Origin: an uncultured Gammaproteobacteria bacterium
Lineage (GTDB): Bacteria; Patescibacteriota; Microgenomatia; Daviesbacterales; UBA10151
Length of the DNA stretch: 64,000 nt
Direction: 5' to 3'
Assembly: GCA_964625535.1 (NCBI GenBank)
Contig: CAZVEX010000001.1
Span: 64,295-128,294 of the forward strand
Notes under the pieces: generated by a model
The model's input: only the letters and a program-made list of their open reading frames with translations
Told to the model about the DNA's origin: nothing
Database searches by the model: none
Shown here: one piece after another, positions 7,212 through 51,320 of the stretch
How positions within the stretch are numbered: position 1 is the first letter of the stretch
How the letters are laid out: each line of letters starts with the position of its first letter
Position numbers and translations under genes: made by a program

Positions 7212-8459
7212 ATGCCAGTGAATAAAAAAGAGGTTATTAAGCTAGAAGTTTGCCGGGTGTGTGAAAGTAGAAATTTATTATTATTTCTTCAACTCGGGCC
7301 TACCCCTGTACCAAATGGATTTTTAAAAGCCCATCACCGTCACCGTGCAGAAAAATTCTATCCTCTGGATGTTTGTTTTTGCAAAAACTGCGGATTGGTA
7401 CAGTTGGCCCATGTAGTATCCCCTAAAGTTATGTTTAAAAATTATGTCTATATTCCTTCAACTTCCGAGACCATGCTTACTCATTTTGCTGCTTTAGCAA
7501 GGCAAGCAATTAAAAAATTAAATACTGAAGAGGGGGATCTGGTTTTGGATATCGGTTCAAACGATGGCACGCTTCTTAATTCCTTTAAAGCGCAAAAAAT
7601 GAGGATATTGGGGGTTGATCCTGCAGAGAACTTGGCCAAAAAAGCTAATCAGGACGGAGTTCAAACTATTTGCGCATTATTTACTAAAGAACTGGCTAAA
7701 GAAATACGTAAAAAAAATAAAGAAGCTAAAATTATTACTGCTACGAATGTGGTAGCTCATGTACATGATTTGGATAATTTCCTGGAAGGAATAAAAATTT
7801 TACTTTCAGATGATGGATTATTTATAAGTGAATTTCCCTATCTTCTAGATCTTCTTGAAAAGGTTGAGTTCGATACCATTTACCAGGAACATCTATCATA
7901 CTTTTCAATTTATCCCTTTGAAAAACTTCTTGTAAAACATGGCCTAACTTTAATTGATGTGCAAAGGGTTCCTGTCCATGGTGGTTCGGTGAGAGTATTT
8001 GTTAGCAAAAAACCCAGCAGTGTTAGCAGAAGAGTTAAAAAAATATTGCAACTTGAGAAAAAACGAGAGATCTTAAGTTCCCAGACATATTTAAAATTTA
8101 GGAAACAAGTGGATAGGGTAAGGCATGAATTAGTACAGCTTCTTTGGGGTCTGCGACTAAAAAATAAAAAGATTGTGGGTTACGGGGCATCCGCCAAAGG
8201 AAATATCATACTAAATTATTGCCGGATTGGTCCGGAAACGCTGGATTATATAGTGGACTCCATACCGTACAAGCAGGGAAAATATACCCCGGGGATGCAT
8301 ATTCCAATATATCCGGAGGCCAAGTTGTTGGAAGATATGCCGGATTATACGCTGCTTTTGGCATGGAATTTTGCAGACGAGATTATCAAAAAACAAGCCG
8401 AGTATCGCAAAAAGGGGGGAAAATTTATTCTGGCTATTCCAAAACTCGCAATTGTTTAG
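7212..8459 (+). CDS. SAM-dependent methyltransferase with N-terminal zinc ribbon and C-methyltransferase-type C-terminal domain (NDP-hexose C-methyltransferase/TylCIII-like architecture)
   Basis: CRVCES ... CKNCGLVQ Cys4 ribbon; SAM motif I LVLDIGSNDGTLL; long C-terminal domain typical of the sugar C-methyltransferase family. Confidence 0.65.
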   Translation: MPVNKKEVIKLEVCRVCESRNLLLFLQLGPTPVPNGFLKAHHRHRAEKFYPLDVCFCKNCGLVQLAHVVSPKVMFKNYVYIPSTSETMLTHFAALARQAIKKLNTEEGDLVLDIGSNDGTLLNSFKAQKMRILGVDPAENLAKKANQDGVQTICALFTKELAKEIRKKNKEAKIITATNVVAHVHDLDNFLEGIKILLSDDGLFISEFPYLLDLLEKVEFDTIYQEHLSYFSIYPFEKLLVKHGLTLIDVQRVPVHGGSVRVFVSKKPSSVSRRVKKILQLEKKREILSSQTYLKFRKQVDRVRHELVQLLWGLRLKNKKIVGYGASAKGNIILNYCRIGPETLDYIVDSIPYKQGKYTPGMHIPIYPEAKLLEDMPDYTLLLAWNFADEIIKKQAEYRKKGGKFILAIPKLAIV

Positions 8460-9318
8460 CCAGAATTTCAACAGTTTCCTCCCATTTTAAAAATTTTAAA
8501 TTAAGTATTTTTTGCGTTTTTTCCACTTTAAGTCCGCCGTATTGAGGGTATCTAATAGGACTATCTTTTAGAAAACCTTCAATGCTAATTGGTTTTACAG
8601 CATTTTTAATGCCTCTTGCTTTTTCTATTAGATAATTTGCTAATTTATAGGGAGTGAAAATATTAACGCTGGAAGTATGAAAAATTCCGGTTGATCTTTT
8701 TGCCAAAAGAGCTTTCAAAGTTTCCGTAACCTCATTAATATAAGTGAGTGTTAAATACTGATCGTTAAACATAGGATAAAGTTTTCCCGTATCGTAAAGC
8801 TTAAGAATTTTGCGGACATAATCCATTTTTGGGGCATATTTGGCTCTTGAGGGATTGGAAATTCGCAAAATTGAGGCATTTTTTAAATTATTCATGACCA
8901 GTTTTTCCGCTTCTTTTTTAGTCCAGCCATACCATGATAGAAAATCGGGGTTTTCTTCCGGTGAATCGTCTTCTGAATATGGTCCCGGATTTTCCTTTCT
9001 TCCGGAAAAAACTACATCTGTAGAAATAGAAATAAAATAAGTATCGGGATGTACTGCTCGAATCAGATTAGCGGTTCCTTCTACATTTACGATCCAACAG
9101 GGAGCATTTTTGTTGTTCCGTTGCTCCTCCGCCGCTGTTACATCCGTAAAAGCGGCAAAATGGATGATCACTTCCGGGGTATGCAATTTGAAAAAAATTT
9201 CTATTGATTTTTTATCGGTAATATCTAATTCGTTTACGGTGGGAGATAAGACATCTGGATAATTCTCAATGAAATGAGAACCAACTAAACCATTGCCGCC
9301 GGTGACTAATATTTTCAT
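8434..9318 (-). CDS. RmlD-like NAD(P)H-dependent nucleotide-4-keto-sugar reductase (dTDP-4-dehydrorhamnose reductase family)
   Basis: MKILVTGGNGLVGSHFIE; Y-x3-K in YGWTKKEAE; 294 aa; 4-nt overlap with downstream GT2 on same strand. Confidence 0.7.
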   Translation of the reverse strand: MKILVTGGNGLVGSHFIENYPDVLSPTVNELDITDKKSIEIFFKLHTPEVIIHFAAFTDVTAAEEQRNNKNAPCWIVNVEGTANLIRAVHPDTYFISISTDVVFSGRKENPGPYSEDDSPEENPDFLSWYGWTKKEAEKLVMNNLKNASILRISNPSRAKYAPKMDYVRKILKLYDTGKLYPMFNDQYLTLTYINEVTETLKALLAKRSTGIFHTSSVNIFTPYKLANYLIEKARGIKNAVKPISIEGFLKDSPIRYPQYGGLKVEKTQKILNLKFLKWEETVEILAKQLRVLE

Positions 9319-10049
9319 AGAAAAAGATCTGTCTTAAATCCTAATCTGGCTAAAATAAAAAGCCCTAGCACTTTAAATGTACCCAGGGAATATTTAATGC
9401 TGTTTTTCAGACTTGCCCCTCTTTTTTTGCCTGTATAACTAGTCTCAACCGGCACTTGAGCTATCCTGATTTTATGATAAGCTGCTTGGGCAATCAATTC
9501 AAAACTGAATAAATAATTATTCGAGTTCACTAAATAGTTTACCCTTTTAAGCATTTTTTTTGTGTAAACCCGAAATCCCTGATGGAAATCATCTAAGTTT
9601 ACACGCAGTATCATTTTATCGATAAGATTTAAAATTCTAATCGGAACCCATTTCCAAAAATACATGCCAGATTTTAACGGATTATCTGAAGTTCTGAAAC
9701 GGTTGCCCAAAATAAATTCTGAACCCGCTTCTATTTCTTTCAAAGCCCCGGGGATAGCTGAAGACTTATATTCGCCGTCCGGGTGAATATCTATAATTAT
9801 ATCTGCTCCGTCTTCAAGCGCTAATTTTAGGGCTCTTTTCATATTGCCGCCATAACCCAAATTGACCGAGTTACGATATGATTTGATTCCAAGTTTTTTT
9901 GCCAGTTTAAAAGTATTGTCATGTGAGGCATCATCGACTAAGATTATTTCATCAACTAAATTTTTGGGAAAATCACGATAAAATTTTTCCAGAGTTTGGG
10001 AAGCATTAAAGGCTAAAAAAATCGTAATAATCTTTGTCCGTTTTTTCAT
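9315..10049 (-). CDS. GT2 glycosyltransferase, DPM1-like polyprenyl-phosphate sugar synthase type
   Basis: IITIFLAFNASQTL ... EIILVDDASHDNTFKLAKKLG ... ADIIIDIHPDGEY; 244 aa. Confidence 0.7.
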   Translation of the reverse strand: MKKRTKIITIFLAFNASQTLEKFYRDFPKNLVDEIILVDDASHDNTFKLAKKLGIKSYRNSVNLGYGGNMKRALKLALEDGADIIIDIHPDGEYKSSAIPGALKEIEAGSEFILGNRFRTSDNPLKSGMYFWKWVPIRILNLIDKMILRVNLDDFHQGFRVYTKKMLKRVNYLVNSNNYLFSFELIAQAAYHKIRIAQVPVETSYTGKKRGASLKNSIKYSLGTFKVLGLFILARLGFKTDLFL

Positions 10050-10103: not shown

Positions 10104-10997
10104 TTAATAATTTTTCTCTTTCTTATTTTTGGCAATAATTAATTCAATGGGGGACTGATTAATCAAATACAAAAAAATCTGCCAAAGAAACACAATCATA
10201 AATATTGGTGAGGCAATCATTAAGTAAAGCAGGGAAATATTTTTTTTAAATAAGGCTGAAGTATTAATTTTTAAAACTGCCAAAATACTGGCTACAAAAC
10301 CACCTAAAGAGTATTCAGGGGCTATGACACTTTGGCAAGAGAGTATTTTAAGATTATTATTTTTAAGTACTTTAATAAGTCCTCTTATCGTAAGATGAGT
10401 TAAATGTCTAGGGGGGTCCAGATGAAACCAATATTTTGAAAATATTTTTGATTCTAAACTGTTATATCTAGGAAATTCAATCATAACAAAACCGTTTTTA
10501 TTTAGAAGCGAGCTTGCTTTTTTAATATATTCTGCAGAATTTGAAATATGCTCCAGACTTTCCCAAAAAACCACGGCATCAAATTTTTGTTTTGTTTGCC
10601 ATTTAATAAAATCCTTTTTAATGACATCGGGGTTTTTAATTTCAGCACCCGGGACGTCTAAATTAATTACCTCAAATTGATCGGGTAAAGATCTACCGAA
10701 TATCCCTTCGCCAGAGCCTACATCCAAAATTTTCCCTGCACGTAAGTATTTTTTTACCCATTTTTTTCTACGGGCTTGGAATAATTGATATGACATTTCT
10801 TTTAATATTCCGGTTATGCCGGGACTTTCCCAATAAATATCAGAGTAATATTTTCCAATATTTTTAGGTACAGGATAGGTGAATCCTAGAAAACAGTTGT
10901 TACAATAAAGAATATGGAATTTTTGGTTGAGTGTAGGTAGAGTTATGGTAGCATTTGTTTGACACTGTGGACATCGTAGTTTATTCTTTGATTTCAT
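10104..10997 (-). CDS. Class I SAM-dependent methyltransferase with N-terminal zinc ribbon
   Basis: Start placed at MKSKNKLRCPQCQ...CNNCF (ATG rc at 10995-10997; ORF-track TTG start at 11027 would collide with divergent gene); SAM motif ILDVGSGEGIFGRSL. Confidence 0.7.
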   Translation of the reverse strand: MKSKNKLRCPQCQTNATITLPTLNQKFHILYCNNCFLGFTYPVPKNIGKYYSDIYWESPGITGILKEMSYQLFQARRKKWVKKYLRAGKILDVGSGEGIFGRSLPDQFEVINLDVPGAEIKNPDVIKKDFIKWQTKQKFDAVVFWESLEHISNSAEYIKKASSLLNKNGFVMIEFPRYNSLESKIFSKYWFHLDPPRHLTHLTIRGLIKVLKNNNLKILSCQSVIAPEYSLGGFVASILAVLKINTSALFKKNISLLYLMIASPIFMIVFLWQIFLYLINQSPIELIIAKNKKEKNY

Positions 10998-11026
10998 CTC
11001 TTGGGTTTTATTATATAATAATTTCA

Positions 11027-12904
11027 ATGAATAAAACTATTAAATTAGTTCAAAATACGGTATTGCTTACATTTTTAATAGTTACGGTTGTTACCTCCAA
11101 CTATTATCTGTTAAGCGATTCGCTGACTTTGGGTTTTAAGCCGGATGATTGGATTCTATTTTTTTCCTATAAGGCTCTTGGCACGAATCCTCTTTCTCAA
11201 ATTGCATCGGTTTGGGCTGAAAGGGGAATATATACCACATACCAAGTTTACTATATGGGTTTTTTGGATAGCCTTTTTGGATTAAATTATTATTCATTTC
11301 ACTTTGTTAACTTAATTTTTAAGATTGTTGCCACCATAAGTTTATACCCTTTAATTCTAGTACTGTTTAAAAACAAGTTACTAGCAGTTTTATCCGTAAT
11401 TCTATTTGCTATTAGTCATTCAACAGTAGGTCCCTTAGAGCTTGTTGTTAAGGGGAGCGATTATTTAGCCATCATTTGGATGAATCTATTTTTGTTGATA
11501 TATTATCTAATCATTGTAAATAAGCTGGTTGGATTAAAATATCACTTTCTTTTATTTATTCTTTTTATTCTATCTCTGGCTTTTTCACCGATTAGGATTT
11601 TCCCGCTTGTAGTAATTCCACCACTGGTTGAAATATTTTTGATACTGAAACATTTTGATTGGGCTGTAATGAAAAAGTCTTTAATCAGACTGGCAGTTCT
11701 TTACTGGCCCTTTGTTATTTTAATTCTGTATTCCCCTATCTCTGTCTTGGGGGATGCGAAAGGCCTTTTTGGCGTATTTGATGCTGTTTTAAAAGGCAAT
11801 TGGTTTTATGTTTTAGCACCAATTTCCGGTATTGGTCATACTTTCATAGCCAATGATTTTTGGGGCAAAATTTTCGGTTTGTTAACAACAGATAAATTTA
11901 ACCATTATCTACTTTTCTTATCCGGGGGTCCCACAGTTATCTGTGGGGTATTGACTTTGTTACTATCCTGGTCGAGAATTTTAAAACAAAAGCTTCTTTT
12001 TTTTATCCTTACTTCATTATTGAATTTTATAGTTCAGATTTTATTTTTCTTTGTCGCGTTCCATCATTTGCAAGTACCTGCCATTGTGAAGGCAAATTAT
12101 GATCCTTCAAATCTTTATTCGGTAATTTTTGGAGGATATATATTGGTAGTTGGTTTTATGATATTTCTGAACTGGTTAAAATGGGATAGAGATAGAATTT
12201 TAGCCTCACTCTGGATTGGTTCAGCCTTTTTATTTATTTTTACTTTTCTGACATGGTTGTTTGCTCCTTTGGGAACAGGGTTTAACGCTACCAGCTACTA
12301 TCTGGTGGTTGCCTCAATCGGATCGTCTCTGATGGTTGCGGCCTTTTTAGTTTCGGTCTACGATAAACTTAAGTTTAGCAGGACAAAACTATTAGCTTTT
12401 CTGCCATTTTTAATTCTTATCTTGATTTTTGGAATGAGCAGTTATGAGATTCGCCAGAGGTTTTCCGGTCTAAATAAAGATGGCCGTGGCGCGGCTGGAC
12501 AGATTATAATGCAAGAAGAGGCAAGACGGGTTTTGAAAGACTACAAGGTGGGAGATTTTATTCTGGTTTATTTTGATACTTCGGATATTGGCGGTAATGG
12601 GTCATTTTATTCAGAAGGATTTTTGACAAGCTTCCCTTTTTTTATGCATTTTCGTAATAACAGAATAGCTGACGGTTGCATTGGAGTAATTTTCGAAGAT
12701 AGTAACATGGTAGAATTAAGGAAATTGGTGCAAGATAAAAATGGAATAAAAGGATTTAATTATCAGGGTTTATGTGTAACGGAAGGAAAAAGCAGCTTAA
12801 GAACTTTATTTTTTACCCGGGATCACTTTTATGCATTCAAAATTAAAGATAGAAAACTGATTGATATTAAAGAAAGTGTTTTGAATCGGTTATATATTAA
12901 GTAA
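11027..12904 (+). CDS. Polytopic GT-C glycosyltransferase (PMT/ArnT, GT39/GT83-like), paralog 1
   Basis: Start at MNKTIK (ATG 11027) rather than 10955; >10 predicted TM helices; first extracytoplasmic loop carries DDW (LGFKPDDWILFFSYK) as in GT-C DE/DD catalytic loop; ~150-aa soluble C-terminal domain. Confidence 0.65.
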   Translation: MNKTIKLVQNTVLLTFLIVTVVTSNYYLLSDSLTLGFKPDDWILFFSYKALGTNPLSQIASVWAERGIYTTYQVYYMGFLDSLFGLNYYSFHFVNLIFKIVATISLYPLILVLFKNKLLAVLSVILFAISHSTVGPLELVVKGSDYLAIIWMNLFLLIYYLIIVNKLVGLKYHFLLFILFILSLAFSPIRIFPLVVIPPLVEIFLILKHFDWAVMKKSLIRLAVLYWPFVILILYSPISVLGDAKGLFGVFDAVLKGNWFYVLAPISGIGHTFIANDFWGKIFGLLTTDKFNHYLLFLSGGPTVICGVLTLLLSWSRILKQKLLFFILTSLLNFIVQILFFFVAFHHLQVPAIVKANYDPSNLYSVIFGGYILVVGFMIFLNWLKWDRDRILASLWIGSAFLFIFTFLTWLFAPLGTGFNATSYYLVVASIGSSLMVAAFLVSVYDKLKFSRTKLLAFLPFLILILIFGMSSYEIRQRFSGLNKDGRGAAGQIIMQEEARRVLKDYKVGDFILVYFDTSDIGGNGSFYSEGFLTSFPFFMHFRNNRIADGCIGVIFEDSNMVELRKLVQDKNGIKGFNYQGLCVTEGKSSLRTLFFTRDHFYAFKIKDRKLIDIKESVLNRLYIK

Positions 12905-12905
12905 A

Positions 12906-13652
12906 ATGATACATCATAAAAATAAAGGTTCTGAAGTTATAGTGGTAATTCCTGCATATAATTCGGAGAAAACAATTGAAAAAGTGTATAAAAGCATACC
13001 TCATGGGTTGGTCGATGAAGTAATTATAGTAGACGATGGATCTAAGGATAATACTGTTGTAGAGATAGAGCGTCTTGGTTTAGAACCAATCATCCATAAA
13101 AAAAATTTAGGGTATGGAGCAAATCAAAAAACTTTATATACTAATGCATTAAAAGCCGGGGCAAAATATGTAATTATGCTTCATCCGGATGATCAGTATG
13201 ACCCAAAAGATCTGCCAAAATTTATTGATGCTTTAAGAAATGGTAAAGGAGACCTAATTTTAGGATCCCGCTTTTTATCAAAAGGAGTTAATGAAACGCC
13301 GGGCTATAAATCAATTTCTTTAAAACTAATAGCAGTACTTTTTAATTTAATTTTAGGGTTACGTCTTTCAGAAGTTAATACTGGATACCGCGGTTATACT
13401 GCCAGATTACTAAAAACAATTCCTTTTTCAAAAAACGGCAACGGATATATTTTTGACCCGCAACTTATTATTCAAGCGGTTCATTTCGGTTTCAAAATTG
13501 CCGAAGTGCCGGTTTCCAAAAAATACAACAAAGAGGCAATCTCGCCCAATTTTTCAAAGTCTATTCATCATGGATTTGAGAATATGCAGCTTTTAATAGA
13601 ATATATTCTTCACCGTCTAAAATTGAAACAGGCTACTTTTTTAACAGCTTAA
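12906..13652 (+). CDS. GT2 glycosyltransferase, DPM1-like polyprenyl-phosphate sugar synthase type
   Basis: VIVVIPAYNSEKTIEKV ... EVIIVDDGSKDNT ... YVIMLHPDDQYDP; 248 aa; sandwiched between two GT-C paralogs. Confidence 0.75.
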   Translation: MIHHKNKGSEVIVVIPAYNSEKTIEKVYKSIPHGLVDEVIIVDDGSKDNTVVEIERLGLEPIIHKKNLGYGANQKTLYTNALKAGAKYVIMLHPDDQYDPKDLPKFIDALRNGKGDLILGSRFLSKGVNETPGYKSISLKLIAVLFNLILGLRLSEVNTGYRGYTARLLKTIPFSKNGNGYIFDPQLIIQAVHFGFKIAEVPVSKKYNKEAISPNFSKSIHHGFENMQLLIEYILHRLKLKQATFLTA

Positions 13653-13664: not shown

Positions 13665-15554
13665 ATGAAAATGAAATTGTGGATATTTTTGCTCTTAATC
13701 GGTTTAGTTTTTTTTATCCAATTTACTCTCTTACAACCCATCATTCAATACAGATTATTTGTAGAAGATTGGACTCTGCTTACAGGTTATAAATATCTCT
13801 ATCCTAACCCCTTTTTAAGACTTGTGGATGTTTGGACGGGCAGCGGCGGCCTGCACACTACTGTCCAAATATACTATATCGGGATATTATCAGATTTTTT
13901 CGGATCTAATTACCAAGCATATCATATCGTAAATGTAATATTAAAAGGCATAGCTACCTTGACACTTTTTCCATTGGTATTGATTCTGTTTAGAAATAAA
14001 CTGTTAGCTTTTTTGACTACTACTTTCTACGCAATTAGCGCCGGCTCGGCAGGTCCTTTGATAATGGTAATTAAAGGTGGGGAGTATCTGGCGGTAGCAG
14101 CATTAAATGTATTCTTAATTGTTTATTATTATGCGATTTCTAAAAAGTCGGTTTTTCTTATCGCTATTTCATCTTTTTTATTTCTTCTTACTTTTCTTCT
14201 TTCCCCATCAAGAATGTTCCCAATTTTTTTTCTGGTTTTGCTGGTAGAAATATTTTGGTTAGTAAAGTCCAGAAGTCTTAAGAATTTAAAGTTTTCCCTA
14301 TTAAGGCTGGTATGTTTTTATATACCGGTTTTTTTGATTGCAAGATCTGCTCCTGTTTCTTCCTGCTGCCTGTTTGCTTCCCGTCCGCCCATTATTTTAA
14401 AAGAAATTCTTGATGGTAATTGGCATAATCTCCTTATTCCATTTGCCGGAATCGGTTATTCGCTTTTGACTACGGATTTTTGGAAATATTTTGGTCAAAT
14501 AGATTTTGCAACCTTCACTGATTTGGGGAATTACCTGCTTTTTCTTTTCAGGTCTTCTGTAATTTTCCTTTTTCTGACGATTATCATTTCAACAATAGTT
14601 TCCAAAAAGCCCGGTAAATTTTTCATTTTAGTTTTTGTCACAAATTTTATTCTGGATATTTTAATGTTTTTTGTAGCAAGTCACCATTTTTATATACCGG
14701 ACAAGCTTAGATCATTTATGGATCCTTCTTTCTACCTCATTACCAAATACCCGGCACTAGTGGCTATTTATATATTTACCGTATCTTTTTTTGCATTTTT
14801 AGAATGGAAAAAATCCGGAAGAAGCAAGCCCTTACTTATGGCCTTGTGGGTAGGCCCTGCTTTTTCGGTTGCTTTCTTATGGCCAACTTGGTTGGTTATA
14901 GGAACACTAATCGGTTATTATACTAGTGTTAGCTGGTACTTAATTATACCTCCAATAGGTCTTTCGTTATTTATATCTGCGATTCTAGTTTTGTTCTATG
15001 AGAAATTAAAATACAAAAGTTTGTCGAAGAGTATTGCCATATTAGTCATTTGTGCCATAATTTTCGTATTGTATAAAACAAGCGGGATGGAAATTACTAG
15101 AGCTTTTATGGCTATAAATTCGCAAAGAGTCAAGATAACCGATCAAGGATTGCTGCAGGATAAATTACTGGCAAAAATCGGCGACCGCTATAAAAGCGGA
15201 AACATTTTTGTCTATTTTGATATAGAAAATGATGTTAAATATTCTAAACAATATTATCAAGACGCACTGTCTTTAGATCATTTTGAATATTGGATGCATG
15301 TTAGAAGATCAGATGGTTTGGGTGGTTGCGTTTCCGGTATAAGCAATAAAGATGCTTTAAGGAAGACAGTTCAATCAATTGACGGGCAAGTTGAATTTGT
15401 TTACAAAGGGATTTGTATGGAGAAAGATAAGCAGGAAGTCCAGAAGTCTTACGATGCTATAGTTTATGATGTTAATGATTTCTACGCCTATAAATTAGAA
15501 AATGGGGAGTTTATAGATATTAAAGAACACACGCTTAAGGAGATAAACCCTTAA
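13665..15554 (+). CDS. Polytopic GT-C glycosyltransferase (PMT/ArnT-like), paralog 2
   Basis: Collinear with 11027..12904: LQPIIQYRLFVEDWTLLTGYKYLY (EDW loop motif), GGLHTTVQIYYIGILSDFFG, many TMs, soluble C-terminal domain ending FYAYKLENGEFIDIKEHTLKEI (compare FYAFKIKDRKLIDIKESVLNRL in paralog 1). Confidence 0.65.
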   Translation: MKMKLWIFLLLIGLVFFIQFTLLQPIIQYRLFVEDWTLLTGYKYLYPNPFLRLVDVWTGSGGLHTTVQIYYIGILSDFFGSNYQAYHIVNVILKGIATLTLFPLVLILFRNKLLAFLTTTFYAISAGSAGPLIMVIKGGEYLAVAALNVFLIVYYYAISKKSVFLIAISSFLFLLTFLLSPSRMFPIFFLVLLVEIFWLVKSRSLKNLKFSLLRLVCFYIPVFLIARSAPVSSCCLFASRPPIILKEILDGNWHNLLIPFAGIGYSLLTTDFWKYFGQIDFATFTDLGNYLLFLFRSSVIFLFLTIIISTIVSKKPGKFFILVFVTNFILDILMFFVASHHFYIPDKLRSFMDPSFYLITKYPALVAIYIFTVSFFAFLEWKKSGRSKPLLMALWVGPAFSVAFLWPTWLVIGTLIGYYTSVSWYLIIPPIGLSLFISAILVLFYEKLKYKSLSKSIAILVICAIIFVLYKTSGMEITRAFMAINSQRVKITDQGLLQDKLLAKIGDRYKSGNIFVYFDIENDVKYSKQYYQDALSLDHFEYWMHVRRSDGLGGCVSGISNKDALRKTVQSIDGQVEFVYKGICMEKDKQEVQKSYDAIVYDVNDFYAYKLENGEFIDIKEHTLKEINP

Positions 15555-16460
15555 TTATTTTCTTTGTAATTGCCGTTTAAACCTATCTAGCGCTTTTTCT
15601 ATGCCAGTAATATGGAATCCAAGAGACTCTATTTTTTTAGTACTTAACCAGGTATGTTGAGGCCTGGGGGCAATCCGTTTTTTGGATAAATTTAAAAATG
15701 ATATTGGTTTTATTAAAGTTGCGTCCAAGTTCATTATATGGGCAATTTTTTGAGCAAATTGAATAGGAGTTATATACTTTTGGGGAGAGTAATTTCCCGC
15801 CACATGGTAAATACCTGTTGCGCTACTTTCTAATAGAAATTTCAGAGCCTTTGCAATATCATCAACGCTTGTTGGTTTGATTTTTTGATCTTCTATTCCA
15901 AAATACGGCTCTTTATCTTTCAGTTTTTCAACAACTGCCCTGGCAATATCAAGTTTTCGTCTGTATACACCGCTGAAAGGATAGGAGATTCGAATGATTG
16001 AGAATTTTCCTCCGATTTGAATAATTCCCAGTTCACCTTCAGATTTGGTTATTGCATACCATGAATCTACCGGGTTAGGAGTATCTTCTTCAGTATAAGG
16101 ACTATCTTCCTTTTTTCCATTAAATACATAATCTGTTGAGATATGGTATAGAACCTTACCGGAAGATTTACAGGTTTCAGCTAGCCAAGTCGGCAAAAGA
16201 ACATTTATGGTATAAACTTCTCCGTCCCGGTCATTTTTTTCTTTTTCAGCTTCATCTACATTAGTATAGGCTGCAAAATTCAAAACAACACTGGCATCAG
16301 ATGATTGGACAGTTTTGGAAACTTCCTCTTTATTGGTTAGGTTTATCTTGATATCTGCATTATTTCTTCCAAGGGTAACAACTGAAAAATTGTTTTTAAC
16401 AAGCTCAATGAATCTTGAGCCGACCAAACCGGTAGAACCGGTAATTAGCAGTTTTTGCAT
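15555..16460 (-). CDS. RmlD-like nucleotide-4-keto-sugar reductase (second copy)
   Basis: MQKLLITGSTGLVGSRFIE; Y-x3-K in YAITKSEGE; 301 aa; abuts convergent GT-C gene with zero spacer. Confidence 0.7.
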   Translation of the reverse strand: MQKLLITGSTGLVGSRFIELVKNNFSVVTLGRNNADIKINLTNKEEVSKTVQSSDASVVLNFAAYTNVDEAEKEKNDRDGEVYTINVLLPTWLAETCKSSGKVLYHISTDYVFNGKKEDSPYTEEDTPNPVDSWYAITKSEGELGIIQIGGKFSIIRISYPFSGVYRRKLDIARAVVEKLKDKEPYFGIEDQKIKPTSVDDIAKALKFLLESSATGIYHVAGNYSPQKYITPIQFAQKIAHIMNLDATLIKPISFLNLSKKRIAPRPQHTWLSTKKIESLGFHITGIEKALDRFKRQLQRK

Positions 16461-16463
16461 ATT

Positions 16464-17633
16464 TTAGGAAGTGGCCTTTTTTATGGTATTGGCTACATAC
16501 TCCATGACCTCAACTGAAAGAGTCGGATGTACAGAGACCCAAAAGCTGCTGTGAAGCAATTGATCCGCATTGTTAAGTTTATCCCGGACTATCACATGGT
16601 CCAAAAAGGCAGGCTGGCGGGCAATATTCCCTGCCAAAATTGGCCGCCACTCAATGTTCGCTTTATCCAAAGCTTCCAAGACTTTTTTTCTTGGAATACC
16701 CTTTAAGGTAACAGGAAAAGTGTACCAGCAGACATCGGCCAGGGAATCAGCAACAGGTAAAACTATTCTATCTTCATATCTGGATAGTAATTTTTTTAGA
16801 ACTTGCGCATTTCTTTTCCTTGCCTTTTTAAATTCCTGTAACCTTCCAAGTTGTACCCTACCCATGGCTGCTTGCAGTTCCAGCGGTTTGAGGTTTGATC
16901 CCAGCTCGGAATATATATACCTTCTGTAATCGGCAGGGAAATCTCCCATCCCCTTTTTCCTATTTTCGAAATCTAAAATCCTTCCCCAATCCCTGATAGA
17001 AAGAACCCTGTCTGCTACATCGGAATTGTCGGTTAAGACTGCGCCTCCCTCTCCGGTTGATATGATATGAGCTGCATGGGTGGAGATAGCTGAAAATTCT
17101 CCAAAACTTCCCAGCATTTTTCCATCCCACATGCCGCCGAAACCGTCGCAATTATCCTCAATAATTTTTAGTTTGTTTTTCTTGGCAATTTTTAATATCT
17201 CATCCAGCTTACCTACTAGCCCTGCTGCATAGACAATAAAGATGGCAGAAGTTTTGTCGGTGATTGATTTTTCAACGGATTTTGGGGAGAGAAAATAATT
17301 CCCCAATTCTATATCGGCAACCACAGGTTTTAAACCGGAATTTATTAAAGATGCAATAGGGGTAGGAAATGAACAGGCGGGAACAATTACTTCCGACCCT
17401 TTTGATAACTGCAGTGCTCTTATTCCTAAATCCAGGGCCGAGGTACCCGAATTTGCTAAAATCGCCCTTTTTACCCCTTGGACTTTTGCCAGTTCCGACT
17501 CAAATAATTTTCCCTGTTCACTCAAACCCCACCAGTTTTTATCCAAAATTGCATCTATTGCCTTGCGTTCTTTTTTACCAAAAGCTACCCCGCCATATAA
17601 AACCCTGGTTTTTCCGGGGATAAATTTTTTCAT
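16464..17633 (-). CDS. DegT/DnrJ/EryC1-family PLP/PMP enzyme with His in place of the Schiff-base Lys: predicted sugar 3-dehydratase (ColD/E1-like) rather than aminotransferase
   Basis: Start placed at MKKFIPGKTRVLYGG (ATG rc 17631-17633); active-site stretch FSAISTHAAHIISTGEGGAV aligns to canonical SFHPVKNLGAFGDGGAV with K->H; immediately upstream of RmlD-like reductase. Confidence 0.6.
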   Translation of the reverse strand: MKKFIPGKTRVLYGGVAFGKKERKAIDAILDKNWWGLSEQGKLFESELAKVQGVKRAILANSGTSALDLGIRALQLSKGSEVIVPACSFPTPIASLINSGLKPVVADIELGNYFLSPKSVEKSITDKTSAIFIVYAAGLVGKLDEILKIAKKNKLKIIEDNCDGFGGMWDGKMLGSFGEFSAISTHAAHIISTGEGGAVLTDNSDVADRVLSIRDWGRILDFENRKKGMGDFPADYRRYIYSELGSNLKPLELQAAMGRVQLGRLQEFKKARKRNAQVLKKLLSRYEDRIVLPVADSLADVCWYTFPVTLKGIPRKKVLEALDKANIEWRPILAGNIARQPAFLDHVIVRDKLNNADQLLHSSFWVSVHPTLSVEVMEYVANTIKKATS

Positions 17634-17742: not shown

Positions 17743-19662
17743 ATGCGATATTTTAAAAAACATTCCTTGAGCATTTGGATATTTTTTTTATGCGCAATTT
17801 TAGTATTTATTACTCAATTTACACTACTTCAATCTGTACTTCAGTATCGGTTATTTAATACCTCGGAGGATTGGGCGTATCTTATTTTATATCACTCCCT
17901 GGATTTAAATTTTTGGGATAAATTAGTTTATGTTTGGAAAACTTCCGGGCTGCACACATCAGCCCAAGTATTCCATATCGGGATTTTATCCGAGTTGTTA
18001 GGTTTTAATTATTCGGCTTATCAAGTGGTAAATGTAGTATTAAAAGCAATAGGGACGCTATCTTTTTTCCCGTTGATTTTGATCCTTTTTAAAAGCAGAA
18101 AGCTGGCATTTTTAGCAACTATTTTGTTTGGGATAAATTCTGCTACTGCCGGATCCTTTCTTTGGATTGTTAAGGGGAGTGAATACATAGGGATAATGTT
18201 GATGAACATTTTTCTTATTACTTACTACTTTGTAATCTTAAAAAATTCAAAAAAGCTTCTTTTTCTATCAAGCATTTTATTTTTATTAGCTTACTTGATG
18301 GCTCCGCCCAGGATGTTTCCACTGGTTTTACTGTTTCCTTTAATTGAAATTTATTGGCTACTTAAAACTCGTAAGATTCGCAATCTAAAATATTCAATCT
18401 TAAGAGGAGTATTTTATATCCTGCCTGTGATTTTAGTTTCCTTACCGGCTCCTGTTTCCCCGGGTTTTCCCTTTACCAAACAGCCGTTCGTTCTTTTAAA
18501 AGCAATACTCGACGGGAATTGGCATAATCTTATTGACCCATTCTCTAGTATAGGTTGGACACTTCTTACAAACGATTACTGGAAATTTTTAGGAAAGTTA
18601 GAATATGAAACTCTAACAAATTTAAAATTATATTTGACCTTTTTGTTTGATAGACCTGTCTTAATCTTCGGAATTTTAACAATGCTATTATCCCGTATTT
18701 TGTCGAATAAACCCCGGAAATTTTTTCTATTAGTTTTTGGTTTAAACTTTATGCTTGAAATTTTATTGTTTATATTAACCAGCCACCACCTTTATTTGCC
18801 GGAAAACCACATCAAGTCTTACCCGGGTCATTTTGTATTCACCAAATTTCCAGCTTTAGTTGGTTTTTATATATTTACGGTCGCTTTTGCCTGTTTTTTG
18901 GAATGGAGAAATGATAAAGAAAAAAGCAATCTATATATGGCTATGTGGGTTGGGGTGATATTTTCAGTAATTTTTCTTTGGCCAACATGGATAATAATGG
19001 GGCCATTAATCAATGATTATAGTAGTGTCCATTGGTATTTTGGTATACCGGCTGCGGGAACCACTCTTTTTTTAGCCGCAATATTGATCCTAATTTATGA
19101 TAAATTTAAACACAGAAGGTTATCCAGGGTATTTGCAGTACTCTTTATTTTGATAATAATAGTTGTTTTTTACCAATCTCATGGGACGGCAATTACCAAA
19201 CAATATATGGGTGTAAACCCCACAAAAGTAAGTTTGAAAGATCAACAAAAACTGCATGAGGAATTGATAATAAGCCTAGGAGATTCAGCAAAAAGCGGAG
19301 ATGTTTTGGTATACCTGGAAATTACTGAAGATGTTGTCAACTTAAGGAGGACACAAGAGTTTTATAAAGAAGCCTTGGTTGTAACAAAGTTTGGAGATTG
19401 GTTACACTTCAGAAGAAAAGAAACCGCCGGATGCATAGATGTTATCATTGATAAAAAGGTGCTTAAATCTGTTATTCAATTAAGGAATAATGAGAAAGGG
19501 TTTGCATACTACGGTAAATGTTTGGATAAAGAGAAGGGTATTTTGGTAAACAAAGAAAACCACCTCTATAAACTTGGTGACTTTTATGCATTACGAATAA
19601 AAAATGGTAACTTTATTAATATCAGAGACGAAATACTCGGAGAATTAAGGCTTAACCCCTGA
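17743..19662 (+). CDS. Polytopic GT-C glycosyltransferase (PMT/ArnT-like), paralog 3
   Basis: FTLLQSVLQYRLFNTSEDWAYLILYHS (EDW), SGLHTSAQVFHIGILSELLGFNYSAYQVVNVVLKAIGTLSFFPLILILFKSRKLAFLATILFGI collinear with paralogs 1-2; C-terminal soluble domain. Confidence 0.65.
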   Translation: MRYFKKHSLSIWIFFLCAILVFITQFTLLQSVLQYRLFNTSEDWAYLILYHSLDLNFWDKLVYVWKTSGLHTSAQVFHIGILSELLGFNYSAYQVVNVVLKAIGTLSFFPLILILFKSRKLAFLATILFGINSATAGSFLWIVKGSEYIGIMLMNIFLITYYFVILKNSKKLLFLSSILFLLAYLMAPPRMFPLVLLFPLIEIYWLLKTRKIRNLKYSILRGVFYILPVILVSLPAPVSPGFPFTKQPFVLLKAILDGNWHNLIDPFSSIGWTLLTNDYWKFLGKLEYETLTNLKLYLTFLFDRPVLIFGILTMLLSRILSNKPRKFFLLVFGLNFMLEILLFILTSHHLYLPENHIKSYPGHFVFTKFPALVGFYIFTVAFACFLEWRNDKEKSNLYMAMWVGVIFSVIFLWPTWIIMGPLINDYSSVHWYFGIPAAGTTLFLAAILILIYDKFKHRRLSRVFAVLFILIIIVVFYQSHGTAITKQYMGVNPTKVSLKDQQKLHEELIISLGDSAKSGDVLVYLEITEDVVNLRRTQEFYKEALVVTKFGDWLHFRRKETAGCIDVIIDKKVLKSVIQLRNNEKGFAYYGKCLDKEKGILVNKENHLYKLGDFYALRIKNGNFINIRDEILGELRLNP

Positions 19663-21414
19663 TTTTAATTGTTCCAGTTTATTTCTTGCCTCATTGGTGA
19701 TGTTTACCAGATTATCTTTTCCCTGCAAATAAAAGGCATAAACTCTATCAGGGGAGATTGGTTTTACCGGATATCCATAAGCGGATAAAGCCTTTCCGTC
19801 TGTAACAGCAGAAACTAACTGTCTGATGTCATCCATCGGCACAGGAAGACCCCCATCCTCCTCTCTTAGATTATAAAGTATTGCCATACGAGGTGGAAAT
19901 CCGAAGGTTATAACATCGTGGAGAATCCCTCCGTTGGTGCCATCCCCTTCAAAGTAAAAAATTATCGGCTCCTTACTTTTGCCAATTTCAGAAACATAGG
20001 GCATAGAAGACCAAATTTTTTTACTGATTTCCTGTCCGTGGCTATTTAAAAGACTGTTGATATACATTTTAGTTGCAATAATATGAATTACTAAAATTAT
20101 GCAAAGCGTTGCAAAAATGGCGATTTGTTGTTTTCTCTCTTTCCCCAAACTAATTATTGTTGCAAGTAATATGGATACACCTGCTGCAGATACGATTAAA
20201 TATCTGTAAGTAGTGGGGAAGATTGATGTTGGCACCCACCACCAGGCAAAAAAGAATGAAGTGATGGACCAGGAGGCTCCTAGAAAGAGAGCTTGAGATA
20301 TGTATTTTTCCTTGAAGTATTTTACTGCCAGAAAGCCAATCAGAATTAGGGTATATCCTCCAATCAGTAATGAAAAAATCTGGTTTGTATTATTGAAGAA
20401 ATTTAGATTTCCTTTATAAATCAATATAATCAGCGTGCTCCACAATCCTAAGGAAAATAACGTATAACAGAATAATTTAGATGTGAATATGCTTGCATTT
20501 TTCATTATAAAAAATACAAAAAGGGAGAAAATCGCAAATGAGGAGATGAGGAAAGGAAGAAGTTGTCTCAAGGCATTAATCTGTCCTTGTGGTCCTATTA
20601 AATCAGGGATCAGCATGCTTCCAAACATAACAATGGGATAAAAAAGAAAATCAAATCTTCCCTGCTGCAAAAGCATAGATATTGTTTGTATCCCTAAATT
20701 AAATCTCTCAGCTATTTCCTGCGGAGGACCCTGTGATTGACCCGTGTATCTGATAATTAGAAATATTGCCAAAAAGACGGAAAATCTAATGACAGATTTT
20801 TTAATTGTTTTAAAGTTTCTGTTTTGAATAACCCAAAAGACCTCAAGTAAAAAGATAAATGGTAGCGATCCATGCATCCTGATGGGAGTTGTTACATAGG
20901 CAAAATAGTAAAGGATTGCTGAAATAATTAAAGAAAAAGGTTTACTCTCCCCTCTTGCTTTAAAGAAGAAATACAAGCACAAATTAAGAAGAGCTACAGT
21001 TATATAGGAGGGCATATTAAAAACCCAGTTAGTAGCATCCAGTCCAATGGTTGTGATTGAGAAAAACCCAACTGCAAAAACAGATGCAATTTTACTCTTT
21101 GTGAGGTAGAAAACTAAAGGATAAAATGAGAATGCAGCCGTGATCCTTAATACATAAGAGGTTAAATAATACCAAGACGATTCAAAACCGAAGATTTTCT
21201 GCATGATTCCCATTAAAATATCCTGGGCCCCGTATGGCGTTAGATAGTAGGTTAGATGATTCCAGGCGCCCGGAGACCTTGGTCCTACATGTTGAAAATA
21301 TCTAAAAAATGCCAACCAGTCATCGCCCATAAGCGCAAGATTGAACGAGGGGTAGAGAGCAAAAAGACTAATAATTATTGAGAGTAAAATAGCAAGAATG
21401 TAGCCTTTTTTCAT
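19645..21414 (-). CDS. Polytopic GT-C glycosyltransferase (PMT/ArnT-like), divergent paralog 4
   Basis: Start placed at MKKGYILAILL (ATG rc 21412-21414, TAATG overlap with upstream gene stop); FNLALMGDDWLAFFRYFQ (DDW loop), many TMs, soluble C-terminal domain; 18-bp overlap with convergent paralog 3. Confidence 0.6.
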   Translation of the reverse strand: MKKGYILAILLSIIISLFALYPSFNLALMGDDWLAFFRYFQHVGPRSPGAWNHLTYYLTPYGAQDILMGIMQKIFGFESSWYYLTSYVLRITAAFSFYPLVFYLTKSKIASVFAVGFFSITTIGLDATNWVFNMPSYITVALLNLCLYFFFKARGESKPFSLIISAILYYFAYVTTPIRMHGSLPFIFLLEVFWVIQNRNFKTIKKSVIRFSVFLAIFLIIRYTGQSQGPPQEIAERFNLGIQTISMLLQQGRFDFLFYPIVMFGSMLIPDLIGPQGQINALRQLLPFLISSFAIFSLFVFFIMKNASIFTSKLFCYTLFSLGLWSTLIILIYKGNLNFFNNTNQIFSLLIGGYTLILIGFLAVKYFKEKYISQALFLGASWSITSFFFAWWWVPTSIFPTTYRYLIVSAAGVSILLATIISLGKERKQQIAIFATLCIILVIHIIATKMYINSLLNSHGQEISKKIWSSMPYVSEIGKSKEPIIFYFEGDGTNGGILHDVITFGFPPRMAILYNLREEDGGLPVPMDDIRQLVSAVTDGKALSAYGYPVKPISPDRVYAFYLQGKDNLVNITNEARNKLEQLKSGVKP

Positions 21415-23711
21415 TATGTTTTCCAAAGTTTGATGCCATTGCCGAGACCTGTCCATAACAGTTTTGCGTCGCAATTGCAAAATGTTTTTGGATCGGCGTT
21501 TTCACCTAAAACCAGATAGTCATAATGATTAGGGAGATTCAAGCGGAGAAAATAATCAACGTCTATCCTACCATTATAAAATGCAGCTGTGGGAATATTA
21601 TAAACTTCTCGGTCATTTAGAATCAGTCTTAAAGCGCGGAACATATGTTCCGGAATACTGGTGCGGTAGTCTATAAAAAATGTGCCTGTTTTCGGTGCAA
21701 ATTTGTCAAACTCCTCCAGTGTGCCTTCTAAATTTTTTGCTTCATTTAAGTATTTATCAGTTACTTTAAATACGCCTTCTGTCCTGTCTTGGCTTAAGAA
21801 TTTAGGCTGGAAATATTCACTGTTTAATATATCTGCTCTTCTTTTATCTGTTAAACCAGCAAGATATATGTCATTGATAATTAAATAATTTGCTTTGAGT
21901 ATTCTTAGCGAAAGGGGATTTAATGTGTAATACAAGTCAGCATAGGTAGGGCCCATATCGAAAATATCATACACCCGGGGTTTTGGCGCCCATAAAGGGG
22001 TTAAAGCACCGATTTCTGTAACTAGATTTAGATTTGAAGACGGGATGGGATTGGAATCGGTTAGAGCCAGCACTCTTTCTTGAACAGGGAGATTGTTCTT
22101 TACCCACTCAAAAGCCGGCCGCTCTGTTTTTGGCAGTATTTTATACCAATAATCTTGAGGTCTTGGGAAAAGTTTTGCAAAAGAAGGCAGGATAGAAATT
22201 ATGAATATCCAACTCAAAAAAATTTTAGGGATTAAATATTTTTTTTGTGGTGAACTAAACCACCAGTTGGAAATAAAAAAAGCAATGCCTAGCCCTGAAA
22301 AATAATAAGCTAATGCCAAAAAGCGGTTTCCGTTGGCGCCTAGATAATCTTTAGGGACTATGCCATGATATGCGATTAACGCTGTCGCGGATGAAATAAA
22401 AAGTAACCACATCATAGCGCGAAGGGATTTGTTTTTAAAAGTGATATAAATACAAATAGATAAAAGTATGCTTAAAGACCAAAAAATTCCCGGATGGAAC
22501 CACTGCAGAGGATAATAATGCGGCTGATCAGGGATTATTTTGGAGGATTGCTGTCTTGTCTGGTAGGTACTTTCTTGCTTGCCAGAGTCTGGTCCGTTTT
22601 TGGGAAAAATTATTACACTCGACTCGCCCTTATTCAATCCAACAATAGTTTCCGTAATGATTCCTCCCTGAAGGCTAATTATTAAGGCCGTCAAAGTTAC
22701 AAATAGAAACCATTTAATAATTGCTTTCCGGAATATGGTAATAAGAAGCATTAAAAGACAGGCAGGTAGGATTACTAAGAGTACAACTTCATCTGTTAGG
22801 GCTGTTGCTGAAAAAACGGCCAATAGGACAAGCGAGATAATAAATAAGTTATTGACAGGACGGATAATAATAGGAAGCAAGCCTATTACAAAAGATATAG
22901 ATAGCAGCCTGTGTATAAAATAAATTAAGACATCAAGATAATGTGGAGTGCCGTAAATTTCCTGCGCATTGTAAATAGTCGGTTGTTGGCTAAGCCATTT
23001 TAAAAAGCCTTCTTCCATATTAGGTAAACCAATTTGAGCAGGCCAGGCAACCATAAAGTTACCCATGGAGATAATCCCCGTTAACGCGGGTAGTGAAATA
23101 ACTAAAAGCGATAAATAGCCTTTTTTTACAGGTATCAGCCAGCTAAGTATTTGACTAATGGCAAGAAGTACAAAAAAAGAAATAAGGGAATGGGTAAAAT
23201 AATAGGGAGCATCTGTTAGTGCTCTCGTAGCCCCCAGAAATTCTCCGGCTCCCAAATGATAATACATTAAATAATCAGGCTGGAAAGGCGTATGAGGAGG
23301 GTAGTCGCCTCTTATGAAAAGCGAGGCTATAGAATAATGATTAACCGAATCTCCTCCGTTTGACTGTGCGTGCGCCGTAATAACGTATAAAAATATAGAC
23401 CAAAGCAGAAGTGAAACAATCCATAGCGTCAGTTGTGTGCCTTTAGGGAATTCTAATTTTGGAACATTCTTAAAATATTTAACCGCAGCAGCAATAACAA
23501 CTTCAGTTATTAAAGCAATAATTATGCCTGAAGGACCCTTGAGGAAATGAGCAAACAGGTTTATTAAAAAAATATATATTGCGATACCGATGATTGCACC
23601 GGCCGGTATTAAGATTTGGGCTCTGCTATCCGTTGTTGCCCTGCGGATTATGGTTATACCGGACCAGAAAAGAACAAGAAAGAAGATTAAAACCTTTATA
23701 TATATGAACAC
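21414..23711 (-). CDS. 765-aa polytopic membrane protein, distinct family (GT-C-like/YfhO-like?), co-transcribed with GT-C paralog 4
   Basis: ~14 hydrophobic segments plus ~230-aa C-terminal soluble domain; loop motif NGGDSVNHYSIASLFIRGDYPPHTPFQPDY; no catalytic motif recognised by eye. Confidence 0.4.
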   Translation of the reverse strand: MFIYIKVLIFFLVLFWSGITIIRRATTDSRAQILIPAGAIIGIAIYIFLINLFAHFLKGPSGIIIALITEVVIAAAVKYFKNVPKLEFPKGTQLTLWIVSLLLWSIFLYVITAHAQSNGGDSVNHYSIASLFIRGDYPPHTPFQPDYLMYYHLGAGEFLGATRALTDAPYYFTHSLISFFVLLAISQILSWLIPVKKGYLSLLVISLPALTGIISMGNFMVAWPAQIGLPNMEEGFLKWLSQQPTIYNAQEIYGTPHYLDVLIYFIHRLLSISFVIGLLPIIIRPVNNLFIISLVLLAVFSATALTDEVVLLVILPACLLMLLITIFRKAIIKWFLFVTLTALIISLQGGIITETIVGLNKGESSVIIFPKNGPDSGKQESTYQTRQQSSKIIPDQPHYYPLQWFHPGIFWSLSILLSICIYITFKNKSLRAMMWLLFISSATALIAYHGIVPKDYLGANGNRFLALAYYFSGLGIAFFISNWWFSSPQKKYLIPKIFLSWIFIISILPSFAKLFPRPQDYWYKILPKTERPAFEWVKNNLPVQERVLALTDSNPIPSSNLNLVTEIGALTPLWAPKPRVYDIFDMGPTYADLYYTLNPLSLRILKANYLIINDIYLAGLTDKRRADILNSEYFQPKFLSQDRTEGVFKVTDKYLNEAKNLEGTLEEFDKFAPKTGTFFIDYRTSIPEHMFRALRLILNDREVYNIPTAAFYNGRIDVDYFLRLNLPNHYDYLVLGENADPKTFCNCDAKLLWTGLGNGIKLWKT

Positions 23712-35037: not shown

Positions 35038-35038
35038 C

Positions 35039-35578: not shown

Positions 35579-35640
35579 TTTGTTCCTAATTATACCACTT
35601 CTTGTTCAAAAATCAACTATGGGATAAAATCAGAAAATTA

Positions 35641-35649
35641 TGGTATAAT
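35641..35649 (+). promoter_or_regulatory. Extended -10 element TGGTATAAT ~11 nt upstream of PfkB kinase start codon (leaderless or near-leaderless transcript)
   Basis: TGGTATAAT at 35641-35649, ATG at 35660; no convincing -35. Confidence 0.35.
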
Positions 35650-35659
35650 CTTTCCTGCG

Positions 35660-36634: not shown

Positions 36635-36648
36635 TAGAATAGGTTTAA

Positions 36649-42951: not shown

Positions 42952-42952
42952 T

Positions 42953-51276: not shown

Positions 51277-51320
51277 TGGTCGCTGAAAATTTTATCATAG
51301 GAGTATATAATTTACTAGCT

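Follow-up and report, generated by a model that had tools for sequence, protein, structure and literature searches.

The stretch of DNA analysed here (64,000 nucleotides of contig CAZVEX010000001.1, positions 64,295 to 128,294, referred to as the window) was found to be AT-rich, with a GC content of 32–40%, and dense in genes for glycan synthesis. The present work concerns two adjacent genes within it, one for a DegT-family protein which carries histidine at the position of the catalytic lysine of aminotransferases, and one for a protein resembling the reductase RmlD:

16464..17633, minus strand: DegT-family His-variant protein of 389 amino acids (PF01041, 4.4e-77), with its start ATG at 17633
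15555..16460, minus strand: RmlD-type short-chain dehydrogenase/reductase (SDR) of 301 amino acids (PF04321, 6.3e-55)

An earlier note on this DNA had joined these open reading frames (ORFs) as a dehydratase and a reductase. Its coordinates and the placement of both on the same strand were found to be correct, with that strand to be given as minus. A longer ORF for the DegT-like protein, reaching to a TTG codon at 17711, is unsupported, as the homologues have lengths of 389–392 amino acids. The junction between the two genes reads TAA-aat-ATG, giving a spacer of 3 nt, and no terminator-like site was identified between the genes. The two genes are predicted to form one operon and to be translationally coupled through this spacer.

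Active site and family placement of the DegT-like protein

The match of the DegT-like protein to PF01041 spans residues 19–384, equivalent to profile positions 4–359 of 360. Its best match among known systems is E1 (RfbH/DdhC/AscC), the CDP-4-keto-6-deoxy-D-glucose 3-dehydrase of Yersinia and Salmonella, with 36.7% of residues identical across almost the entire length. In the alignment, the motif SAISTHAAHIISTGEGG puts His189 of the DegT-like protein opposite His220 of E1, and the same residue is aligned with His188 of ColD (WbdK), the GDP-4-keto-6-deoxy-D-mannose 3-dehydratase. This column is occupied by lysine in Protein Data Bank (PDB) entry 3bb8, the H220K mutant of E1, as well as in a DegT paralogue of the window at 29588..30697 (plus strand), the motif of which is SFHPVKNL. 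The earlier note had remarked on STHAAH in place of this motif, and the alignments bear this out. Histidine is invariant at the catalytic position among 120 homologues (120/120). Counted over aligned sequences it is present in 124 out of 125, and 148 of the 151 sequences representing the wider family have it too, which identifies it as a conserved character and neither a sequencing error nor a chance or recent loss.

In comparisons with PDB entries, the protein scored 237 bits against E1 (3bcx; 3.9e-69) and 171 bits against ColD (2gms; 5e-49), with the top aminotransferase at 138 bits. Among NCBIfam models, that of RfbH (NF011936) gave 307.3 bits, below its cutoff of 423, versus 167 bits for that of PseC. 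At the level of sequence, the assignment of the protein to the His-type group of nucleoside diphosphate (NDP)-sugar 3-dehydratases, and not to aminotransferases with a secondary loss of lysine, is supported.

Residues of the cofactor site, namely S62-G63 in the phosphate loop, D160 and S184, are invariant in an alignment of 51 sequences of the clade to which the protein belongs, as are both H186 and H189, down to 37% identity. H186 sits at the site of E1 Tyr217, three residues ahead of the catalytic His189. A preprint lists Tyr217 among four E1 residues (Asp194, Tyr217, His220, and Phe345) whose mutation is reported to shift the enzyme towards an aminotransferase (bioRxiv 10.1101/2021.09.04.459008). 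At these sites the alignment has Asp, His, His and Tyr, respectively, for the DegT-like protein; by residue identity, two are in the dehydratase state and one in the aminotransferase state, and the fourth is a conservative aromatic.

The DegT-like protein and E1 have in common the histidine at the lysine position, Asp at the Asp194 site and the residues DWGR before the loop that carries the [2Fe-2S] cluster in E1. However, this loop, which is RDCYCAPGCDNTCKKRFGQQLG in E1, is represented in the DegT-like protein by the shorter, cysteine-free stretch RILDFENRKKGMG, with a loss of approximately 20 residues. The sites of E1 cysteines C251, C253 and C261 are taken by L, F and a gap, respectively, and of the cluster cysteines only C193, which is itself generally conserved, is kept. 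No protein of the E3 type (Fer2, FAD_binding_6 or NAD_binding_1) was detected among the window ORFs of at least 150 amino acids. It has been described that E1 and SpnQ require a [2Fe-2S] cluster together with an external reductase, whereas ColD, which has neither, releases its product by hydrolysis and has its pyridoxamine 5'-phosphate (PMP) regenerated from glutamate (PMC8987622, section 25). The hydrolysis and glutamate route has also been reported for the ColD orthologues of C. jejuni, which are heptose C3-dehydratases (PMC10440746). As the DegT-like protein has histidine for lysine and no Fe-S site, and as no E3-like partner was found in the window, the chemistry of ColD would be expected of it, i.e., the use of PMP, hydrolytic release of the product and recycling with glutamate. 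To this extent the ColD logic put forward in the earlier note stands, with reductase-independent chemistry as the best inference.

Relatives were sought among 1.8 billion cluster representatives, and 1072 of these matched at an E-value of 1e-30 or better. The best 150 of these 1072 were aligned with E1, ColD and the window proteins, and a neighbour-joining tree was built. Among the best 150, the CxC...C motif was found in approximately 65 and the loop is cysteine-free in 77, showing that Fe-S-free His-type proteins are common and not confined to ColD. In the tree, the DegT-like protein falls within a group of approximately 25 representatives which are all Fe-S-free and which, with one exception (24/25), have the second histidine at the E1 Tyr217 site, in the motif S-[TF]-H-A-A-H. 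The exact 25-member group was recovered in 58 of 100 bootstrap replicates, while all replicates (100/100) placed the protein in a set of 20 or more sequences from which E1, ColD and the other His variant of the window were absent. Its identity to this other variant (42953..44182) is 33.8%, with 31.5% to ColD and 28.8% to the Lys paralogue at 29588..30697. By these comparisons, the protein is closest to E1/RfbH and then to ColD, yet is a member of neither, belonging to a separate Fe-S-free 'His..His' clade. It is further distinguished from ColD by Ala instead of Ser before the histidine. The kinship with ColD in particular, implied by the earlier note, was not upheld. The nearest relative is from Candidatus Daviesbacteria UBA9644, at 95% identity.

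Relatives were also observed on contigs classed as viral. Sixty six such contigs of IMG/VR (L087–L152) carry DegT-like relatives with 38–46% identity; L032 and L047 belong here too. S[FM]HAAH is present in 55 of the 66 and the Fe-S CxC in none, and 30 have a gene of the RmlB type (STDEVYG) in the locus. Further genes of L047 are those for GT11, GT17, DUF3431, and HNH proteins, all on a single strand. In cultured phages, DegT-like relatives were found only at identities of 38% or less.

The RmlD-like partner and the source of the keto sugar

The RmlD-like protein shares with RmlD (dTDP-4-dehydrorhamnose reductase) its PF04321 domain, its length of about 300 amino acids and its T/Y/K motifs. The stretches GSTGLVGS, STDYVF and YAITK, which hold the GxxGxxG, STD and YxxxK elements, align to the catalytic motifs of RmlD 3sc6, and the T/Y/K triad is intact. 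It differs from RmlD in that it scores 182.6 bits against the rmlD model TIGR01214 (cutoff 224.05), in that its partner is a homologue of 3-dehydratases, and in that profile scans of the window ORFs identified no RmlA, RmlB or RmlC gene adjoining its own. The protein is predicted to be an NAD(P)H-dependent 4-ketoreductase.

Eighty six related loci were gathered, with their ORFs labelled by BLAST against the Pfam-annotated proteins of the window. At DegT identities of 79% or more, all 11 loci with sequence available have the RmlD-like gene as the next gene downstream, in the same orientation. This tight and conserved pairing supports the coupling of the two genes, and the presence of a conserved ketoreductase partner suggests that the product of the DegT-like protein keeps a keto group. 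A 4-ketoreductase as the next gene is a feature also of ColD, along with histidine for lysine and the lack of an Fe-S cluster. However, the partner here is of the RmlD type and not of the Fcl/ColC type, and nothing at the locus points to GDP.

The earlier note had brought a Fcl/ColC-like gene at 50314..51276 into its proposal. This gene is real (minus strand; GDPFucSynFcl, 292 bits, cutoff 500), but it lies 33 kb away in a two-gene unit in which it overlaps a gene for a glycosyltransferase of family 4 (GT4). With the RmlD-like gene as the conserved partner it is not needed, and the link between it and the pair is not supported.

As the earlier note had stated, no GDP-mannose 4,6-dehydratase (GMD) is visible in the window, and neither a CDP-glucose 4,6-dehydratase of the TSDK type nor any classical 4,6-dehydratase motif was found there. 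The sole SDR with a T-S-E motif in the window is UXS-like (STSEVYG, at 31044; gene 30666..31637). It was rejected as the missing 4,6-dehydratase on its scores of 272 bits against 8vr2, its nearest relative of known structure, 143 bits against UXS1 and 124 bits against RmlB; it is nearer to UDP-glucuronate decarboxylases and is part of a WbpB/D/E-like cluster. The SDRs at 40538 and 41573 were also rejected as dehydratases, being without the T-D/S-E motif. In 14 related loci of the candidate phyla radiation (CPR) type, no 4,6-dehydratase motif was detected within 7–10 kb. A 4,6-dehydratase gene may lie in another part of the genome; if not, the CPR enzymes would use a 4-keto sugar made otherwise.

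In the wider clade, taken as 71 loci whose members are 40–58% identical to the DegT-like protein, an extended SDR was found within four genes in 54 loci. An RmlB-type 4,6-dehydratase (STDEVYG...YxASK) is present in 28 of the 71, with dTDP-glucose 4,6-dehydratase as the best model at sub-threshold scores of 180–254 bits, and a Fcl-like reductase adjoins the clade member in six. Such partners are what would be expected beside an enzyme of NDP-4-keto-6-deoxyhexoses, and they support the assignment of the clade as dehydratases. Other neighbours give a hint, without proof, of other precursors. A UDP-sugar dehydrogenase and extended SDRs occur nearby in the window and in loci L005 and L013, and an HddA-like kinase, an NTP-transferase, a HAD phosphatase and a transaldolase are encoded just upstream in L005, L009, and L019.

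In more distant CPR loci, split genes for transketolase/E1-dehydrogenase-like subunits were observed a few genes from that of the His-type DegT protein (L001, 18842..20100; L003, 11999..13170; and L024). These genes are absent from the window, and they hint at two-carbon branched or chain-extended sugars in those distant loci.

Glycosyltransferase neighbours and other glycan clusters

The pair lies among genes for a small glycosyltransferase of family 2 (GT2) and for membrane proteins with a predicted GT-C fold:

12906..13652, plus strand: small GT2 of 248 amino acids (PF00535, 5e-22), PpgS/AglJ/DPMS-like
13665..15554, plus strand: putative GT-C-fold membrane glycosyltransferase paralogue of 629 amino acids (AlphaFold model and Foldseek)
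10955..12904, plus strand: putative GT-C-fold paralogue, 35–36% identical to 13665..15554 (alignments)
17743..19662, plus strand: putative GT-C-fold paralogue, 46% identical, divergent from the DegT gene (alignments)
19645..21480, minus strand: remote paralogue of the GT-C-fold family, 611 amino acids (hhalign probability 99.6%, E-value 1.8e-23, full length)

The gene at 13665..15554 converges on the RmlD-like gene with zero spacer. No Pfam or NCBIfam match was obtained for the membrane proteins of approximately 630 amino acids around the pair. For 13665..15554, 40 homologues were used to build an AlphaFold (AF2) model, which is confident, with a predicted local distance difference test (pLDDT) score of 88.7. 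In a Foldseek search of the PDB with this model, the top 19 matches were all GT-C enzymes, with probabilities of approximately 1.0 and template modelling (TM) scores of approximately 0.4, and the matches include PglB, STT3, DPY19, ALG12, ArnT, and PMT4. An Asp-Trp pair in the first loop (D35-W36) is invariant in the alignment of the GT-C-fold family, and hhalign of this family against a single PMT_2 protein gave no match. GT-C-fold paralogues flank the DegT/RmlD pair in related loci too, and in L004 and L008, two loci at 95% identity, the counterpart of 19645..21480 immediately precedes the DegT gene and shares its strand. The protein at 21414..23711 was considered as a further paralogue and was ruled out by hhalign against the 630-amino acid family.

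For the GT2 at 12906..13652, the best NCBIfam models were PpgS (87 bits), AglJ (82 bits) and dolichol-phosphate-hexose transferase (64 bits), all far under their cutoffs, and its match to dolichol-phosphate mannose synthase (DPMS; PDB 5mlz) had an E-value of 5e-12. An orthologue of this gene is found at most four genes from the DegT gene in every close locus (at least 79% identity) that is long enough to show it. In L006, in which the DegT-like protein has 66% identity, no RmlD-like reductase is present, yet the GT2 orthologue is the immediate neighbour. As GT-C enzymes use lipid-linked donors, the layout can be read as a tailoring pair with a lipid-phosphate sugar synthase and GT-C transferases.

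Locus L005 (CAYLXC010000002.1) has the gene order of the Daviesbacteria-type loci, its DegT-like, RmlD-like, GT2 and GT-C proteins being 83, 67, 69 and approximately 29% identical, respectively, to those of the window. Its record is titled 'uncultured Gammaproteobacteria', a bin label which may be wrong.

Beside the GT-C paralogue at 10955..12904, a parallel module was observed at 7212..10049:

7212..8459, plus strand: TylC3-like sugar C-methyltransferase
8434..9318, minus strand: second RmlD-like reductase
9315..10049, minus strand: second PpgS-like small GT2 (PpgS, 71 bits)

This module suggests that there are several tailored sugars, each of which is loaded on a lipid carrier. Further features of the window are a second cluster with a His variant and three very large proteins:

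39768..44182, plus strand: second His-variant cluster (cytidylyltransferase-like protein, two SDRs, cupin, E1-like protein)
21414..23711, minus strand: very large protein of 765 amino acids, no family match
51276..53993, plus strand: very large protein of 905 amino acids (GT-C_AftD, 5e-9)
58270..61710, plus strand: very large protein of 1146 amino acids, no family match

In the second His-variant cluster, the gene at 39768 resembles those for glucose-1-phosphate cytidylyltransferase (276 bits, cutoff 300); two others encode extended SDRs that lack a dehydratase motif, and another an RmlC/FdtA-like cupin of 150 amino acids. The E1-like protein of the cluster, with 409 amino acids (42953..44182, plus strand) has its histidine in TSFYGSHIIT, no Fe-S cysteines, and GGGGG where others have GEGG. 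It agrees with the count of two candidate 3-dehydratases in the earlier note, and it falls in a different Fe-S-free clade from the DegT-like protein at 16464..17633. The cluster is followed at 44880..47338 (plus strand) by genes for a NodU/CmcH-type carbamoyltransferase and a TylF-like O-methyltransferase, which suggest carbamoylated or methylated sugars.

Two other groups of genes were observed. At 28025..31637 (plus strand) a WbpB/WbpD/WbpE-like set, consisting of a GFO/IDH/MocA oxidoreductase, a hexapeptide acetyltransferase and the Lys-type DegT protein, is followed by the UXS-like STSEVYG SDR; this may be a pathway of diacetamido-uronate decarboxylation. Upstream of the nucleotidyltransferase gene at 39768, genes for a SIS isomerase, a ribulose-phosphate 3-epimerase, a PfkB kinase and a small HAD hydrolase are grouped at 33815..38750, an arrangement reminiscent of a route for the activation of heptose phosphates.

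Proposed route, alternatives and significance

It is considered moderately probable that the DegT/RmlD pair carries out a PMP-dependent, Fe-S-free 3-dehydration of an NDP-4-keto sugar in the manner of ColD, followed by a 4-reduction of the RmlD type, with delivery of the product through a lipid carrier and GT-C transferases. An NDP-3-deoxy sugar would result, in the simplest case an NDP-3,6-dideoxyhexose. Judging by homology, the DegT-like protein would bind PMP non-covalently, because it has no lysine, and form a ketimine with C4 of the sugar, upon which His189 would take the C4' proton and the 3-OH would be expelled. The ene-amine would be released hydrolytically, as in ColD, to yield the 3-deoxy-4-keto sugar and ammonia, and PMP would be regenerated from pyridoxal 5'-phosphate (PLP) with L-glutamate. 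From its catalytic motifs and its invariant synteny, the RmlD-type SDR would then reduce the 4-keto group with NAD(P)H. Finally, as suggested by neighbourhood, family resemblance and predicted fold, the PpgS/DPMS-like GT2 may move the sugar to polyprenyl phosphate, and the GT-C-fold paralogues may hand it to acceptors outside the membrane. The deoxy sugar probably feeds polyprenyl-phosphate/GT-C surface glycosylation in a Daviesbacteria-like CPR bacterium.

A DegT-family tailoring enzyme together with a polyprenyl-phosphate GT2 and GT-C transferases is also the gene logic of ArnB-ArnC-ArnT, in the lipid A aminoarabinose (Arn) system, and of the mycobacterial PpgS-Rv3779. The locus would represent an Arn-like arrangement in which 4-amination gives way to 3-deoxygenation. 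Unlike in Arn, the DegT member is a predicted His-type dehydratase, accompanied by a reductase, in place of an aminotransferase; the GT-C paralogues number four, and the GT2 is under every equivalog cutoff.

A number of points count against the proposed route. Both the DegT-like and the RmlD-like protein are under the curated equivalog cutoffs, and the former has His, the aminotransferase state, at the E1 Tyr217 site. No 3,5-epimerase gene is adjacent, although RmlD enzymes normally act after one, on L-configured sugars. As a 4,6-dehydratase was not found in the window or the 14 CPR-type loci, the 4-keto substrate is unaccounted for. The lipid-carrier step rests solely on synteny and sub-threshold family resemblance, and 3-dehydratase activity across the 'His..His' clade is a prediction.

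One alternative, which we think unlikely, is a self-contained cassette for the 3-deoxygenation of a sugar without 6-deoxygenation. It would act on a 4-keto pentose or heptose made by another oxidase or decarboxylase; otherwise, both the oxidation of C4 and its later re-reduction would fall to the RmlD-like SDR. The product would be an NDP-3-deoxy sugar and not a 3,6-dideoxyhexose. The lack of a 4,6-dehydratase in the window and the 14 CPR-type loci is consistent with this, as are the UXS-like decarboxylase of the window, the recurrence of a UDP-sugar dehydrogenase with extended SDRs, and the HddA-like kinase and its companions upstream in three loci. However, the occurrence of distant clade members beside RmlB-type 4,6-dehydratases points to an ancestral 4-keto-6-deoxyhexose, and the dehydratase may sit elsewhere in the genome. 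RmlD-family enzymes, moreover, are known as reductases and not as oxidase-reductases. Also speculative, and in our estimation improbable, is the proposal that the pair is the tailoring core of an Arn-like CPR system of surface glycosylation which depends on a lipid carrier and installs a 3-deoxy sugar, with a 'His..His' clade, present also on the contigs classed as viral, acting on a non-6-deoxy 4-keto sugar, no 4,6-dehydratase in the CPR lineage, and an RmlD-type enzyme possibly both supplying and removing the keto group.

Equally unlikely is the idea that the His/His protein is mainly a 4-aminotransferase, forming an NDP-4-amino sugar with glutamate while the RmlD-like enzyme serves another step. 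In its favour, the histidine at the E1 Tyr217 site, the aminotransferase state at this switch site, is shared with the Lys paralogue of the window (SFHPVK versus STHAAH). The DegT member which stands beside a polyprenyl-phosphate GT2 and a GT-C enzyme in Arn, i.e., ArnB, is an aminotransferase. It has also been reported that SpnQ, a His enzyme, transaminates when its reductase is missing, but wild-type ColD and E1 do not do so in comparable conditions (PMC8987622, section 25). The catalytic lysine is missing across the clade, and the nearest characterised relatives are dehydratases. Of the other switch sites, the Asp194 site is still Asp and the Phe345 site is Tyr, not His. In addition, a 4-amino product would leave the invariantly coupled 4-ketoreductase nothing to reduce.

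A true E1-type CDP-4-keto-6-deoxyglucose 3-dehydrase, supplied with electrons by a reductase encoded elsewhere, is very unlikely. E1 and the RfbH model are the best sequence matches, some homologues are labelled CDP-6-deoxy-D-xylo-4-hexulose-3-dehydrase by the Joint Genome Institute (JGI), and a glucose-1-phosphate cytidylyltransferase-like gene is present at 39768. However, the Fe-S cysteines of the loop are all gone, both in the DegT-like protein and in the whole clade, the score is under the RfbH cutoff, and neither an E3-like gene nor a CDP-glucose 4,6-dehydratase was found in the window.

The colitose-like GDP pathway suggested by the earlier note, in which the pair and the Fcl/ColC-like protein at 50314..51276 would act on GDP-4-keto-6-deoxymannose, is highly improbable and was set aside. 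A Fcl-like SDR does exist in the window, and a Fcl-like gene adjoins a clade member in the six distant loci mentioned above, but that of the window is remote from the pair and accompanied by a GT4 gene, GMD is absent from the window, the DegT-like protein is outside the ColD clade, and the conserved partner is RmlD-like. That the protein is an inactive pseudo-enzyme is scarcely credible, since, although its catalytic lysine is missing, it groups with dehydratases and not among the aminotransferases, its histidine and cofactor-site residues are invariant down to 37% identity, more than 1000 family representatives were found at an E-value of 1e-30 or better, and the operon structure is conserved.

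To our knowledge, only three types of 3-dehydratase have been characterised (E1, ColD, and SpnQ). By the present analysis, about half of the diversity of the family is without an Fe-S site, and the DegT-like protein would represent a distinct clade with its own signature (the second histidine, at the Tyr217 site), partner and context. This amounts to a branch of a known kind of enzyme, introducing no new principle and overturning no current view. If the proposed route is correct, the pair would extend the known ways to 3-deoxy sugars by one that is reductase-independent, and would tie deoxysugar synthesis to polyprenyl-phosphate/GT-C delivery. It would also provide a marker for 3-deoxy sugars in CPR bacteria, the envelopes of which are almost unknown.

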